Part shown: positions 9,025 to 53,309 of the stretch, in pieces
Numbering within the stretch: position 1 is the first letter of the stretch
Layout: each line of letters begins with the position of its first letter
NCBI GenBank assembly: GCA_964016885.1
Contig: OZ024741.1
Location: 204,848,001-204,912,000, forward strand
Direction: 5' to 3'
Length of the DNA stretch: 64,000 nucleotides
Source of the DNA: Eledone cirrhosa
Taxonomy: Eukaryota
Made by a program: the position numbers and the translations under genes
The notes under the pieces: model-generated
The model's input: only the letters and a program-made list of their open reading frames with translations
The model's database searches: none
What the model was told of the DNA's origin: nothing

Positions 9025-9260
9025 TAGACAATACGAAGAGCGCGATGTGATTGCAATAGATTTATTGAATGATATTTCGACAGTTAGTCTGTCCTTGTGA
9101 GTTCAGAATGAAAGATGATAAAAATTTAAAATTATATAAATTCAAATCCAAAATATGAATTTTTATCACTTTTCATTCTGAACTCGACAAAGACAGACTA
9201 ACTGTCGAAATATTGTTCAATAAATCTATTGCAATCGCATTGCGCTCTTTATATTGTCTA
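9025..9260. repeat. Inverted repeat (about 100-bp arms) carrying variant hammerhead motifs; Penelope-like derivative
   Basis: Arms 9025-9126 and 9158-9260 are reverse complements with mostly CpG-type differences; motif at 9179-9219. Confidence 0.75.
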
Positions 9261-10095
9261 ATAATAATAATGATAATTGGTATAAATCGAAGTTGTAGAC
9301 GCAGTAGAGCAGATACCACTCAAATTGTTTGAGGCAGTCACAAAGCACTCAATGTTGTGAAAATTTAATACATTTTCATCCAGAGAAAACACAAAGTTAA
9401 GAAAGTGTGACACCATGAAAAAACAACCAATTGTATGTGGCCATAGTTGATAACTACAACTACATGTTAATTTTCCTAAGTTTACTAATCTGTGATGTGC
9501 ATGTTTTCTCTTCTTCCCCCAATAATTTCAATGATTTACATTTAACACAATGTTTTAGTTTTTCTCTTTCTTCTTGTTGCCTTTTTTCCCTTCCTTTCTG
9601 CTTTTTGTTTCATGAGACTCTTGTGCTATAAAATACAATACCTTTTCCCTGACGTCACATAAATTCTATGTATACATGTTATCGCTTAATTGCTATAAAT
9701 TATTGTTTTGTCTTGTCTTTTACTCCATGGATAGCATTTTGTCAGATAGCTTGTGTCAGATGTTGTGACCTCAGTTGGACCAGCAGTACCGTTGGTAGCG
9801 GTCGAATCTGCCAATGTCCATCTCAATGGCCAATGTCCCTGGAGTTCTGTCTTTTGTTTATATTTTTGTTTTTTAAAAATAATTTTTTAAGATTTCCCCT
9901 TCAAAAAATTGTTTTTCGTTTTGCCTTGATTTTGTTTGTTGTCTCATATTCTCTTTGTTAACTTTGCTGTATATATATATATATATATATATATATATAT
10001 ATATATATATATATATATATATAGTAATAATAATAAAATTTGCTTAAACTTTAATCTGTTATTTTAATAAATATATATATATATATATATATATG

Positions 10096-10817
10096 GATGT
10101 GTAATAGTAATATACCTGAACGGCAAAACATAAATGAACTAAGTGAGAAATTAGGAATAAGAGGGATCAGATGCTGTTTACTTGAGAGAAGGCTACGTTG
10201 GTATAGTCATGTGATGCACATGAAAGACGACAGCTGTATAAAAAAGTGCAGGGTGATCAAAATTGATGGAAGTTACGGAGTAGGTAGACCCAGAAAAACC
10301 TGGGACGATTTGATAAATTCCGACCTCACACACTTGCACCTCTCTAAGACAATGTCACTGGACCGAGATCTTTGACACCATGCAGTAATACAGAAGACTC
10401 GCTTTGTCTATGTACAAAGCGAAACCAACAGTCAATAGGCACCTCTTAACCAAATATACACCCCAATCCACTACCCCTACTCCATCCTCCCACTCCCACC
10501 AACACCACCCTTTCTCTGTAAAGTTGGTACCACAACATCAAGTCCAAACTAATGAGATCGAGATCGTGTAGGTGTCACGACAAAAAGAACACACAGTCCA
10601 CGCAGTAATATGGCCGTGTAGGTAACACGGTAAAAAGTTCCCAGTCCACACTGTAAATGTGGTTGGTATTAGGAAGGCAGCCAGCTGTAGAAAACCTGCC
10701 AGGTAGTCCTATATGAGCGAGACACGGTCACCCGACCAACATTGCCTCAAATTGGGACAACTCCTGTCTAACCCATGCTAGCGTGGAAGATGGACGTTAA
10801 ACGATGATGATGATAAT
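10096..10817 (+). mobile_element. RTE family B 3' fragment
   Basis: ORF 10097..10375 closely matches the end of ORF 6833..8413; same 3' UTR and tail; preceded by (TA)n. Confidence 0.9.
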
Positions 10818-11954
10818 GGAAAAAATTATGATGAATTTACTAAATATTGTTCCAATTTATGGGATTGTGAAGGAAGGAAATCTATAGGCTAAAATCTTAC
10901 GATGGTATGATAACCCTTGAAGTAGAATGTCCAGCAAGTGACAATTCAACAGCCTTTTGTTAGTAGTAATATTTTGGTATTGGTACTGGGAGTAGAGCAG
11001 GGGTGTCTAACCTTTTTGATACCAACCCATCTGAAACCACACTAGTTTTATGATACACAACTGCTTATTTCAAAAATGTTCATATTTATATTAAAATGTT
11101 CCATCATAGTTTTATTTAAGAGATTTTTGTGAGGTAATGTTTCAAACATCAGCTTTTTTATAAAAAAAATTATCTTATGAAATTCTTCAAATTTTCAAAA
11201 TCAATTGATGTACATAGGCTAGAGTAAAAAGTGAACGATAGAAGTTTAGAAAACTGTTAATTTTCAATACTAAGATGCAGACAAGGCTATGTGATTAGAG
11301 CAAATGTCTTGCAGCAATGTAGTTCTGGGTTCAATTTGACTGCATGCTAAAAGTGGTATGTGGTTAAATCGAATTAGTATGAAATAAAAAAAGCATTGCC
11401 CACAGTCTTTGTCCTTCATATAAATTCTATAAGCAAAATGTGGATACAATATTCAACCGTGAGTTTATATTCTTTGCAAGTTTTTCATGGTGTCTCTAGG
11501 CAATAAACTTATTTACTATGTACCTCACATTTTCACCTAGCTGGGCATATTTGATGCTAAATGTTCTAGGAAAGTTACCTGCTTGGATTCCTCTCTAGTG
11601 TCACATTAATATCTCATCTGCTTGACACCACAGAGTTTGTAGCTTAGTATTGATGTTATGAGCAAACTTTCTTGAAGAAATCTATCTTTACTCTTTCAAT
11701 AGTTGCTATAACAATGACAATAGTTAGATAATAGTTTGTTTTTATCAAGTCTCAGCATGTGTCCTTTATTTATCTGAAATTTATTATTATTATTATTCTG
11801 AAATTACTATTTCTTCCACATACCTTTTTTCTTTTGCTTGGAAGTCAGCAAACTTCCAGTTTCATGCATAATGCTTTTGGATTTATGCTTTTTTTTATCA
11901 TTAGAGAACAAAATTTATTATATTGAGTAAAAGGAAAAAAGATAATTTTAATTA

Positions 11955-12279
11955 CTAGAATTTTTTTTACATGTGTATAAGTGTGTGCATGTGTGTACAT
12001 GCATATGCATACATTTATATGTATGAGTATATAAATATAAACGTGCAAACACAGACACACTTACAAAAATACCCACTCAGACATACATTCACACAAACAC
12101 ACACGCATACATTTACACAAACACACACACACAGAGTAGCTTGTTCACCATCCCCTTCCTTCCTTTTATACACATACATTCACGCAGGCAGCAGGCGTAA
12201 AGAGAGAGGAGTAGTATGAGGTATTCAAACTACCCTCTTTTTACGTGTTGTGACTGAATCACAGAAATTTATATATAGA
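11955..12279 (-). mobile_element. Non-autonomous Helitron-like element
   Basis: Minus strand reads A|TCTATATATAAAT...CTAG|T (TC...CTAG between A and T, no TSD). Confidence 0.5.
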
Positions 12280-12461
12280 TGGATACATTAAATTTTTTAT
12301 TTTGATATAATTTAATGAAACAAAAACAATTATTTAGTTGCAAAATTCATTAGCTCAAATATCACACTATTTTTGTATGTTTGTTTCTCTTATTGTTTCT
12401 CTCTAACTCTCTCATGTTCGTAACTAAAAATACTCTTATTTTTTTAAATTTTTTTATTTAG

Positions 12462-12514
12462 ATCTATATCTAAGGAATCTGTTACCATACTTGATGCAAT
12501 GAACTATATTAAAG
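12462..12514 (+). CDS. KTI12: KTI12 coding exon (SISKESVTILDAMNYIKG)
   Basis: T-rich tract + TAG acceptor, donor GTAAAT; 53 nt; phase fits the next exon. Confidence 0.92.
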
Positions 12515-12565
12515 GTAAATAACAAGTTTCTTTTGAGCCCCTGTTGAAATGTAAAATAAAATAGT

Positions 12566-51333: not shown

Positions 51334-51664
51334 CTAGCTCGTTCCGTGTCATCAAAAAAATGAAGGCTAATTGTAATATGTATACATAATATAAAAAAAG
51401 AAATGTTTGTTTGTTGGTTGGTTGGTTCTTTCATGCTCACTCACACAAGTGATACAAACATACAAACCTTTCTCAGTCGACGTTATCACCCCTTCCTTTC
51501 TCAGTCGATATAATATCTCCTTCCTTTTTCAGTCAACGTTATCACCCCTTCCTTTGTCAGTCAATGTTATCACCCCTTCCTTTCTCAGTTGACGTAATCA
51601 CCTCTTCCTTTGTCAGTCATCTTTTGTGACGGACAAAAACACAAGGATATTATATATTAGTAGA
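51334..51664 (-). mobile_element. Non-autonomous Helitron-like element with 28-bp minisatellite
   Basis: Minus strand A|TCTAC...CTAG|T; about 5.5 units of CCTTTCTCAGTCGACGTTATCACCCCTT at 51467-51619. Confidence 0.6.
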
Positions 51665-52164
51665 TCTTGTCATAGAACAATTGTTTGTTTCACAATCATG
51701 AAGTCTCAAGTTTGATCCCACTGCATGGCATCTTGAGCAAGTTTTTTCTACCATAGCCTCAGTCTGACCTTACCTTTTGTAAGTAATATTTCAGCATGCA
51801 TTGGGAGCATTTTATCATGACTCCAGCCCTACCCCACTACAGGATGGACAGTGTTCTTTTTATCATGGCACCAGCACTACCATTTTACAGTGTGGTGGGT
51901 GTATCATCATGGTACCAGCACTGCCACTTTATTATGTGAGCTGGATGAATTTATTGTTGCACCACCACTGCCATTTTACAGAGTGGGTTGGGTATATTTT
52001 ATTGTGGCACCATCATCAGCATGGGTAGGACAATATATATATATACATATATACATATATATATATATATATATATATATATATATATATAGACACACAC
52101 ACATTAAAATAACAACAGAAGGCCAGACTAGAAAATTTACTTTAGAATTACAATTCCGTGAAAG

Positions 52165-52234
52165 CACTATACATATTTCAATGGCCCAGCTCTATCATCT
52201 ATTATGATGCAAAACAAGGCGATTTCTTCAGGTG
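52165..52234 (-). ncRNA. Minimal hammerhead ribozyme motif
   Basis: CAC-CTGAAGA-[imperfect stem II]-GAAAT-ATGT-ATA-GTG on the minus strand. Confidence 0.6.
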
Positions 52235-52395
52235 TTATTTGCAGAATTATGTAACAGGATTACTTTGAACCCAAATATAGAATGGAAGATAGGAGATAGA
52301 GAAAAAAAATAGTAGATAGAAAACAGAAAATTCGATTTGGGGTAAAATGACAGGAGGCCATACTGGTGAAATTGCTTTAAGATTTATTTCAGCAA

Positions 52396-52453
52396 ACACT
52401 ATGTACGTTTCAGTGGCCATGTTACGTAAGATCCTGGTGACATCATCAGGTTC
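52396..52453 (-). ncRNA. Minimal hammerhead ribozyme motif
   Basis: AC-CTGATGA-[TGTCACCAGG..CATGGCCACT]-GAAAC-GTAC-ATA-GT; one stem III mismatch consistent with CpG decay. Confidence 0.6.
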
Positions 52454-52539
52454 ATATTGCATAACAGTTACATAACTTCTTATAGCCTCTTGGGCTGTCT
52501 TTATCATTATTTCTTTATTATATAACTATTGTGCAATAT

Positions 52540-52597
52540 GCACCTGATGATGTCACCAGGATCTTACAAAACCTGGCCAATGAAATGTACATAGTGT
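52540..52597 (+). ncRNA. Minimal hammerhead ribozyme motif (inverted arm)
   Basis: GCAC-CTGATGA-[CCAGG/CCTGG]-GAAAT-GTAC-ATA-GTGT; palindromic ATGTACAT. Confidence 0.68.
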
Positions 52598-53309
52598 TTG
52601 CTGAAATAAAAATTTGAAGGAATTTCACCAGTCCGGCCTCCTGTTATTTTATTCAAGAATAATTAACTCTGTTCTCACACCACCAACAAGATTCAACATC
52701 AAAGATGTTGCTGCATATGAGTTGCATAACGTTGAGTGCTTTTCCTAATATTACATCATGGTTGGCTATACAGAAAGACCAGTTCTATCCAGTGGTGAAC
52801 CACCAAACTTAAATGTGTATATATATATGCACATGGCTTAGTGGTTAGAGCATTGGCCTTGCAATCGAAAGGTTGTGAGTTCAATTCTCAGACCGGGTGA
52901 TGTGTTGTTTCCTTGAGCAAGACACTTTATTTCACATTGCTCCAGTTTACTCAGCTGTAGAAATGAGATGATAGGGACTGGGGTCCCTGTCATTCCACTG
53001 CAAAGTGGTCGTGGAGGTGCCACGGCAAAAAAGCACCCAGCACTCACTGTAAATGAGGTTGGTGTTAGGAAGGGCATCCAGCTGTAGAAATCAAGCCAGA
53101 ATCAGTTCCCGTCCCACCCTTGCAAGCAGGGAAAAAGTGGACGTTAAATGAAATGATGAATGATGATGATAAACACACATACACATGCATATATACAGAC
53201 AACAGGTTTCTCTACAGTTTCTATCAAATAAAACTTTAATAACAAGGCATTGGTATAATAAATAATCAAATATATATATGTAAAGAAACTTAAAAAATGA
53301 TCAGCTTAC

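Follow-up and report, generated by a model that had tools for sequence, protein, structure and literature searches.

Why should 64,000 nucleotides of the Eledone cirrhosa genome (assembly GCA_964016885.1, contig OZ024741.1, positions 204,848,001 to 204,912,000 of the forward strand; hereafter the window) hold four long palindromes with hammerhead ribozyme motifs in their arms, and how did these palindromes get there? Judged by sequence, the four are head-to-head 3′ ends, the pseudo-long terminal repeats (pLTRs), of Penelope-like retrotransposons (PLEs), not members of a new class. It is probable that they are insertion products in which one PLE RNA was copied twice, from two start sites flanking its tail, and the resulting complementary DNAs (cDNAs) were joined head to head. 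We also lean towards a broader reading, in which editing by ADAR has been made heritable. PLE hairpin RNAs would be hyper-edited in the germ line and rewritten into DNA by long interspersed nuclear elements (LINEs) and by the PLE protein, the edits would serve as barcodes of single molecules, one sense RNA would be copied twice up to its cap, and ADAR would both disarm the ribozyme and diversify the family.

An earlier note on this DNA had described four mutually dissimilar inverted repeats, at least three of them in introns. All four are present and intronic, elements 1 and 2 in KTI12 and elements 3 and 4 in HBS1L, and they have only AT-rich words of 10–23 nt in common. The arms are 100% complementary at 41433–41844 and 99% at 26963–27313; the palindromes at 9023–9262 (about 85–90%) and 52343–52651 (about 80–87%) are older. 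Overlooked in that note was a one-sided tail that prolongs each insertion past its palindrome (9000–9022, 26874–26962, 41299–41432 and about 52652–52815). The insertions end in (TA)n or (TAA)n, except that (TA)n is missing to the left of element 4, and the (TA)n target of element 2 lies inside an older repeat. The parts of the four elements are as follows.

9000..9261, no strand assigned: element 1, an old inverted PLE-type insertion in (TAA)n, with a partly deleted tail (9000–9022) on its left arm
26874..26962, minus strand: one-sided tail of element 2, 89 nt, adjoining (TA)n
26963..27313, no strand assigned: element 2 palindrome, arms of 173 nt and a 5-nt spacer, the pLTR end of a Hydra-like PLE
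41299..41432, minus strand: tail of element 3, 134 nt, ending about 65 nt upstream of an HBS1L exon
41433..41844, no strand assigned: element 3 palindrome, arms of 204 nt and a 4-nt spacer, with its axis at an initiator-like TTC-A-TT site
52343..52651, no strand assigned: element 4 palindrome, older, of a family tied to a frameshifted Hydra-type open reading frame (ORF; locus L350)
52652..52815, plus strand: tail of element 4, terminating in (TA)n

The suggestion that the motifs stem from PLEs is borne out by the arms, which match pLTR ends of ORF-bearing elements. All four arms recur as dispersed repeats across the 3.0-Gb assembly (G000), with 31, 1133, 863 and 1782 candidates for elements 1–4 (families 1–4 below). 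In a 6.3-kb tandem array, an 813-aa ORF is preceded, at a distance of 310 nt, by a repeat to which the arm of element 3 is 100% identical. This ORF carries RWR, DKT, YRDD, CxCX5C, CxxC and CxH motifs and lacks CCHH; all 150 scored matches to its first 140 aa are 99–100% identical, most of them in frames of about 830 aa, and the family is therefore young. Element 2 is linked to a 399-aa frame that is 44% identical to the 813-aa ORF, and element 4 to a frameshifted relative (L350, 35–49% identity), found in one of nine extended loci. Neither Pfam nor a PDB sequence search returned a match to the 813-aa ORF; the Atlas neighbours carry GIY-YIG and HTH_animal. One locus of the element-3 family (L063:1401–3839, on G000:C1692) displays a Hydra-clade PLE family of very recent origin, with numerous intact ORFs and with tandem arrays, and the 3′ region of the family is microsatellite-rich and 3.5 kb long.

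The layout of the copies is that of endonuclease-bearing (EN+) PLEs. A single ORF stands beside the repeat in family 3 (813 aa) and partial ORFs do so in families 2 and 4; tandem and inverted 5′-truncated arrangements both occur, with a 6.3-kb period on C1692 and inverted pairs 0–12 kb apart; and two discrete 3′ ends, one with the optional tail, are found in all four families. Hydra-clade PLEs are diagnosed by RWK, DKT, CxCX5C and CxxC/CxH motifs without CCHH (PMC8557442). Family 3 has the full motif set, family 4 has DKT, CxCX5C, CxxC and CxH, and family 2 has the C-terminal motifs only. Insertion into (TA)n, the Hydra target, holds for families 2–4, family 1 targeting (TAA)n, and copies of the older repeat around element 2 that lack the insertion have bare (TA)n. 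By motifs and related ORFs, elements 2–4 are assigned to the Hydra clade; family 1 falls outside this assignment. At four loci (L093, L260, L261 and L291), insertions of different PLE families adjoin one another in a single (TA)n tract. Of eight further copies of the repeat that surrounds element 2, two appear to carry insertions of their own at its (TA)n tract.

The palindromes do not behave as a fixed mobile unit. The ORF-less, non-autonomous class with a fixed unit that had been proposed gives way to arms that are the ends of autonomous PLEs, with axes and arm lengths that vary between insertions and many copies that are single arms. Unit lengths range from 203 to 1518 nt with differing junctions, and an inverted partner within 1.5 kb accompanies 11, 25, 13 and 8 of 30 loci for elements 1–4, respectively (one of the 25 is doubtful). 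No constant unit copied whole and head to tail, as in retrozymes or other fixed non-autonomous units, was found. With units so variable and single arms so common, the palindromes are insertion products. Among the 39 inverted units listed (38 distinct), every one has one tail.

The 5′ ends of the arms cluster. Anchoring on the tail, which introduces no bias, places the 5′ end of 7 of the 22 terminal family-3 insertions (the window's own excluded) 202–206 nt from the tail-less end, three of the seven being single arms; the cluster (p ~3e-10 against a uniform distribution) lies at the A of TTCATT, immediately ahead of the ribozyme, and six short-read joints terminate at the same spot. At a TCACT-like site in element 2, seven arms end and six continue, after removal of five mis-anchored rows and re-classing of one. 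We infer that the hot spot is a transcription start, in which case the short palindromes would be run-off copies of the 5′ leader after internal priming of the kind demonstrated in PMC11167929. In the element-1 family (e.g., L108–L111), a polypyrimidine tract that ends in CGCAG/G lies about 150 nt upstream of the tail-less end and resembles a 3′ splice site, perhaps that of a PLE leader intron.

The probable record of editing begins with a copied segment of the KTI12 intron that holds element 2.

25082..30862, plus strand: retro-copied KTI12 intron segment, ending at the (ATG)n tail of a LINE (about 27900–30862)

A 5.8-kb copy of this segment, wholly intronic and with element 2 inside it, lies on another chromosome (G000:C1:396328469–396334253), where it was inserted in a microsatellite; it was found through a tail match with the window's flanks. 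Of the 34 substitutions in its hairpin, 33 read as A>G on the KTI12 strand, and these are spread over both arms (33 of 128 aligned A). The 5.3 kb of flanks, by comparison, have 10 A>G among 50 mixed changes (hairpin versus flank, p = 2e-13). The tail has no A>G, and 16 nt are missing at the hairpin apex. The most fitting reading of the C1 locus is that a LINE copied an intron RNA after ADAR had edited it. On the evidence of this copy, the hairpin is likely an in vivo substrate of ADAR, much as the earlier note had supposed when it saw the palindromes as suppliers of double-stranded RNA (dsRNA).

A>G-hypermutated retroviral copies are known, and nine A>G-hypermutated loci of family 2, on six contigs, accompany the C1 copy. 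Three of them, L340, L342 and L344 (complex), carry edits on one strand, as in C1, and L268 and L275 were resolved as one edited sense arm. The other four (L299, L291, L294 and L297) are palindromes in which both arms bear the same element-sense A>G set: 16 of 16 edits are shared in L299, and the arms are identical at 60/62, 74/76 and 102/102 sites in L291, L294 and L297, respectively. Independent edited arms have only 138 of 845 sites in common. Across the four palindromes and L268, 72 of 305 A are edited in the pLTR and none of 163 in the tail, which is the footprint of a one-tailed hairpin. Edited A is depleted after G (5/104), and the loci combine dense one-strand A>G confined to dsRNA with the 5′ G depletion of ADAR hyper-editing. 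Since the arms share their edits and the tail is unedited, both arms likely come from one hairpin RNA, and marks of A>G rather than T>C point to a sense-strand template. Hairpin transcripts are likely templates for new insertions. A core nucleotide or the cleavage-site base was struck by A>G in seven of nine edited arms, so editing would inactivate the ribozyme rather than unmask it, as had been conjectured.

Several other matches were discarded. L241, a candidate edited copy of element 3, proved to be microsatellite flank, and the double-G antisense-pattern matches L311, L315, L324 and L341 and the ATAGAT variants L267 and L276 are old copies with a mixed substitution spectrum. In L340 and L342, the (TA)n flanks of the whole-hairpin edited copies look as if turned into CA/TG-mixed repeats; compound microsatellites could arise in this way, through the editing of (TA)n tracts that pair. 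L344 (G000:C18:1617000–1618500) has two tailed arms set tail to tail around (TA)n within a further inverted duplication, and both tails are edited on one strand.

Under the double-priming reading, the PLE protein would cut both strands of the (TA)n target and prime twice on one sense RNA, once at the tail-less site and once at the tail end. Both cDNAs would run towards the cap and join head to head through short homologies. The A>G marks would stem from ADAR acting on hairpin RNA in the germ line, and both arms of a palindrome would descend from one RNA. Read-through of a palindrome by the host gene would produce a hairpin that is likely to be hyper-edited, usually to the detriment of its ribozyme. 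Edited RNA might occasionally be rewritten into the genome, either by a LINE, which would copy the whole hairpin with its flanks, or by the PLE protein, which would build a new palindrome from the sense arm.

That the two arms bear identical edits, that spacers are tiny and that junctions show microhomology would also follow from fold-back, in which the tailed cDNA primes itself, is copied back to the tail-less site and later suffers central deletions, or from its variant, conversion of one arm by the other; self-priming was indeed proposed for PLEs in PMC3846280. We nevertheless regard this as unlikely. The tail-less arm is often the longer one (e.g., L150, L166, L169 and L170), which would require extra deletions; the tail-less arm of L294 has further edits in sequence that its tailed arm lacks; and a PLE protein in vitro extends both target strands from two RNA sites (PMC11167929). 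Because either arm, tailed or tail-less, can be the longer, double priming is favoured over simple fold-back, which would need central deletions to be rescued. An artefact of assembly, the event that the earlier note said would undo its account, is scarcely credible for either the palindromes or the A>G clusters. The edited C1 copy was not recovered in four other runs, but short-read contigs cross the axis of element 3 (X1 records 7 and 8, X5 record 21), old copies differ between their arms, each tail stands on one side only, and the A>G changes are strand-specific, confined to the duplex and in ADAR context at nine loci on six contigs.

The model of the earlier note itself held that these are non-autonomous, self-masking ribozyme hairpins, kept for protection of the pre-mRNA, with editing switching cleavage on. 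It draws on real properties of the locus: the predicted duplexes (−140 to −307 kcal/mol) are far more stable than the ribozyme folds (−7 to −47 kcal/mol), hairpin RNAs are likely edited and re-used as templates, and stem II covaries across subfamilies. Duplex masking of cleavage is plausible from these modelled energies, yet nothing points to selection for it. The model as a whole is very improbable, given that axes vary and single arms are common (a partner in 8/30 element-4 and 11/30 element-1 loci), that old copies decay, core included, and that editing damaged the core or cut site in most edited arms. Moreover, new palindromes derived from edited RNA are reconstructed out of a single arm instead of being copied whole, cleavage by PLE hammerheads is weak or requires the PLE protein, and the covariation mirrors selection in the parent elements.

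Several observations weigh against double priming of edited RNA. Neither contigs of runs X1, X3 and X4 nor reads of X22 covered the stretch of the C1 copy where edits are dense, in a search that filtered records; the copy therefore has the assembly as its one source and may be private to the assembled animal. A head-to-head unit with two tails exists (L302, one of nine units resolved later), and no parent ORF of element 1 was found in eight extended loci (0/8). Element 3 (window 41620–41660) and a copy on C6 (L254, G000:C6:72656400) match exactly at the axis junction, 4-nt spacer included, despite three differences between their tails. The shared edits could also come from cDNA fold-back or later arm conversion; symmetric A>G palindromes number four against zero of the symmetric T>C ones that conversion would be expected to leave, a difference with p of only 0.06; and subfamily differences may account for some of the A>G calls in L297. 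Edited copies were sought only in the element-2 family, by two single-site patterns, whose 45 and 43 matches were for the most part ordinary variants. No edited copy was seen among loci of elements 1, 3 and 4 (27, 52 and 34 distinct arms), at which no search was aimed.

The hammerheads belong to the parent elements. Their positions in the window are as follows.

9179..9219, plus strand: right-arm hammerhead variant of element 1, with U3-A8 and U4C in the core, stem I TGAAC/GTTCA and stem III ATAT
9066..9105, minus strand: left-arm hammerhead of element 1, broken, with G5 missing
27205..27271, plus strand: right-arm hammerhead of element 2, core at 27213; mirror copy with its core at 27063 on the minus strand
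41640..41788, plus strand: right-arm hammerhead of element 3, core at 41647, stem II >100 nt, stem III ACGATCGT; mirror copy on the minus strand
52540..52597, plus strand: right-arm hammerhead of element 4, core at 52544, stem III ATGTACAT; mirror copy at about 52397–52455 on the minus strand

In all four elements the motifs face outward from the axis, as had been noticed, but only because the 3′ ends do. A minimal hammerhead with a palindromic stem III in both arms of every element had also been claimed. Elements 2 and 3 have the canonical CUGANGA...GAAA core with such a stem III on each side, and element 4 has it in its right arm; the claim fails for element 1, whose family has a variant core, and for the left arm of element 4, which has a single change in the stem III palindrome. 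Thus, one of the eight motifs is broken and one is a core variant. The right-arm motif of element 3 is predicted to cut after 41781. A strict hammerhead descriptor picked out two motifs in the window, where 100 shuffles averaged 0.06, and overlooked the other arms because stem II is long or bulged; the Rfam hammerhead models had no match in the window, where Rfam returned only chance miRNA hairpins.

Covariation across copies, whose absence the earlier note would have taken as a refutation, is seen in stem II. Among 26 distinct element-2 motifs, 94.7% of stem cells are paired, and stem II has three pairs with double changes between subfamilies, a score reached in 0 of 500 shuffles; all of these double changes trace to one subfamily split. 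Core, stems I–III, palindromic stem III and covariation together are those of a minimal type I hammerhead, and the stem II covariation reflects selection in the parent elements. A second 5′-end hot spot at the ribozyme cut site, hinted at by one locus and by short-read joints, was rejected: 5′ ends joined to (TA)n are scattered, and 2–3 of about 38 such places have their 5′ end there, which is no excess. The hammerhead is a passenger of the pLTR.

Inverted pLTR architecture has already been published (Cervera 2014, PMC4209133; Arkhipova 2013, PMC3846280; Craig 2021, PMC8557442), and the formation of inverted PLE insertions is named as an open task in PMC8557442. Our elements share with the Hydra-clade PLEs of that paper the RWK-like, DKT, CxCX5C, CxxC and CxH motifs, the lack of CCHH, the pLTR hammerhead, the (TA)n targets, and the tandem and inverted 5′-truncated structures with a one-sided tail. 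They differ in scale: the unit here is 6.3 kb with a 3.5-kb microsatellite-rich 3′ region, whereas published units are generally <3 kb, and the tails are 89–160 nt instead of 30–40 bp. A large recent expansion and, in family 3, a stem II of >100 nt also set them apart (PMC8557442). Dual hammerheads 100–700 bp apart on opposite strands were attributed to truncated PLEs in PMC4209133. The metazoan PLE hammerheads described there are like ours in being type I, with a palindromic stem III, a 5′ stem II bulge and the U3-A8 variant, to which element 1 adds U4C; the results and discussion of that paper do not treat editing or template origin. Penelope of Adineta vaga shares the inverted pLTR, the optional tail on one arm, a palindrome at the junction and an initiator-like TCACT, but self-priming was proposed there on an antisense template (PMC3846280), in contrast to the sense-strand template suggested here.

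Work in vitro on the Anolis Poseidon element PAc found two reverse transcriptase start sites that bound the tail, cutting and extension of both target strands, and a hammerhead dispensable for insertion (PMC11167929). PAc belongs to another clade, and the main text of that paper is silent on inverted products and on the number of RNA templates. Self-folding repeats and a lizard Penelope are heavy ADAR targets with G depleted 5′ of the sites (PMC5625713), although those edits were observed in RNA and ours are fixed in genomic DNA copies. Non-LTR retrozymes are likewise ORF-less hammerhead derivatives of PLE pLTRs, but they form head-to-tail tandem units, whereas the units here are head-to-head with variable axes (bioRxiv 10.64898/2026.07.22.740005).

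The elements are new members of a known clade, and their architecture alone is ordinary PLE biology. In the open-access literature, exclusive of subscription journals and supplements, we found no prior report of genomic ADAR-edited PLEs or retro-copies or of single-RNA twin priming in PLEs, and the literature searched held none of axes clustering at an initiator-like site. Molecule-specific edits common to both arms offer an in vivo test of inverted insertion that is applicable to any PLE-rich assembly. When an edited intron is retro-copied into the genome, it preserves a dated record of dsRNA editing in the germ line and opens a path by which RNA editing can become inherited DNA change. For biochemistry, the highly active Hydra-clade family and its many intact ORFs are a ready substrate.

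The host genes occupy most of the window.

1..36376, plus strand: KTI12, with its first exon 16 kb upstream of the window
near 12462, 23351, 24443, 32874, 34884 and 36122, plus strand: KTI12 exons in the window
40615..56700, minus strand: HBS1L, on a basis that includes a spliced contig of run X4
near 56600, 56150, 51150, 48300, 44200, 41133–41233 and 40700, minus strand: HBS1L exons detected

An enrichment of palindromes in introns was considered and rejected because these two genes cover about 93% of the window anyway (assuming that HBS1L reaches the window's end). The tail of element 3 stops about 65 nt from an HBS1L exon (window 41233–41299), and a contig of run X4 has that exon still spliced. 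The LINE with the (ATG)n tail has two copies in KTI12 introns (window 2065–4903 and 28100–30862, 94% identical) and further fragments at 6900–7465 and 17180–19451. LINE fragments also form an inverted pair of 440 nt in the KTI12 pre-mRNA (window 5982–6421 and 25036–25475, 91%, 18.6 kb apart), and the start of the C1 retro-copy falls inside the second of these. Directly after the tail of element 4, at 52834–52891, lies the tRNA-like head of a short interspersed nuclear element (Rfam tRNA, 28.1 bits, below the cut-off).

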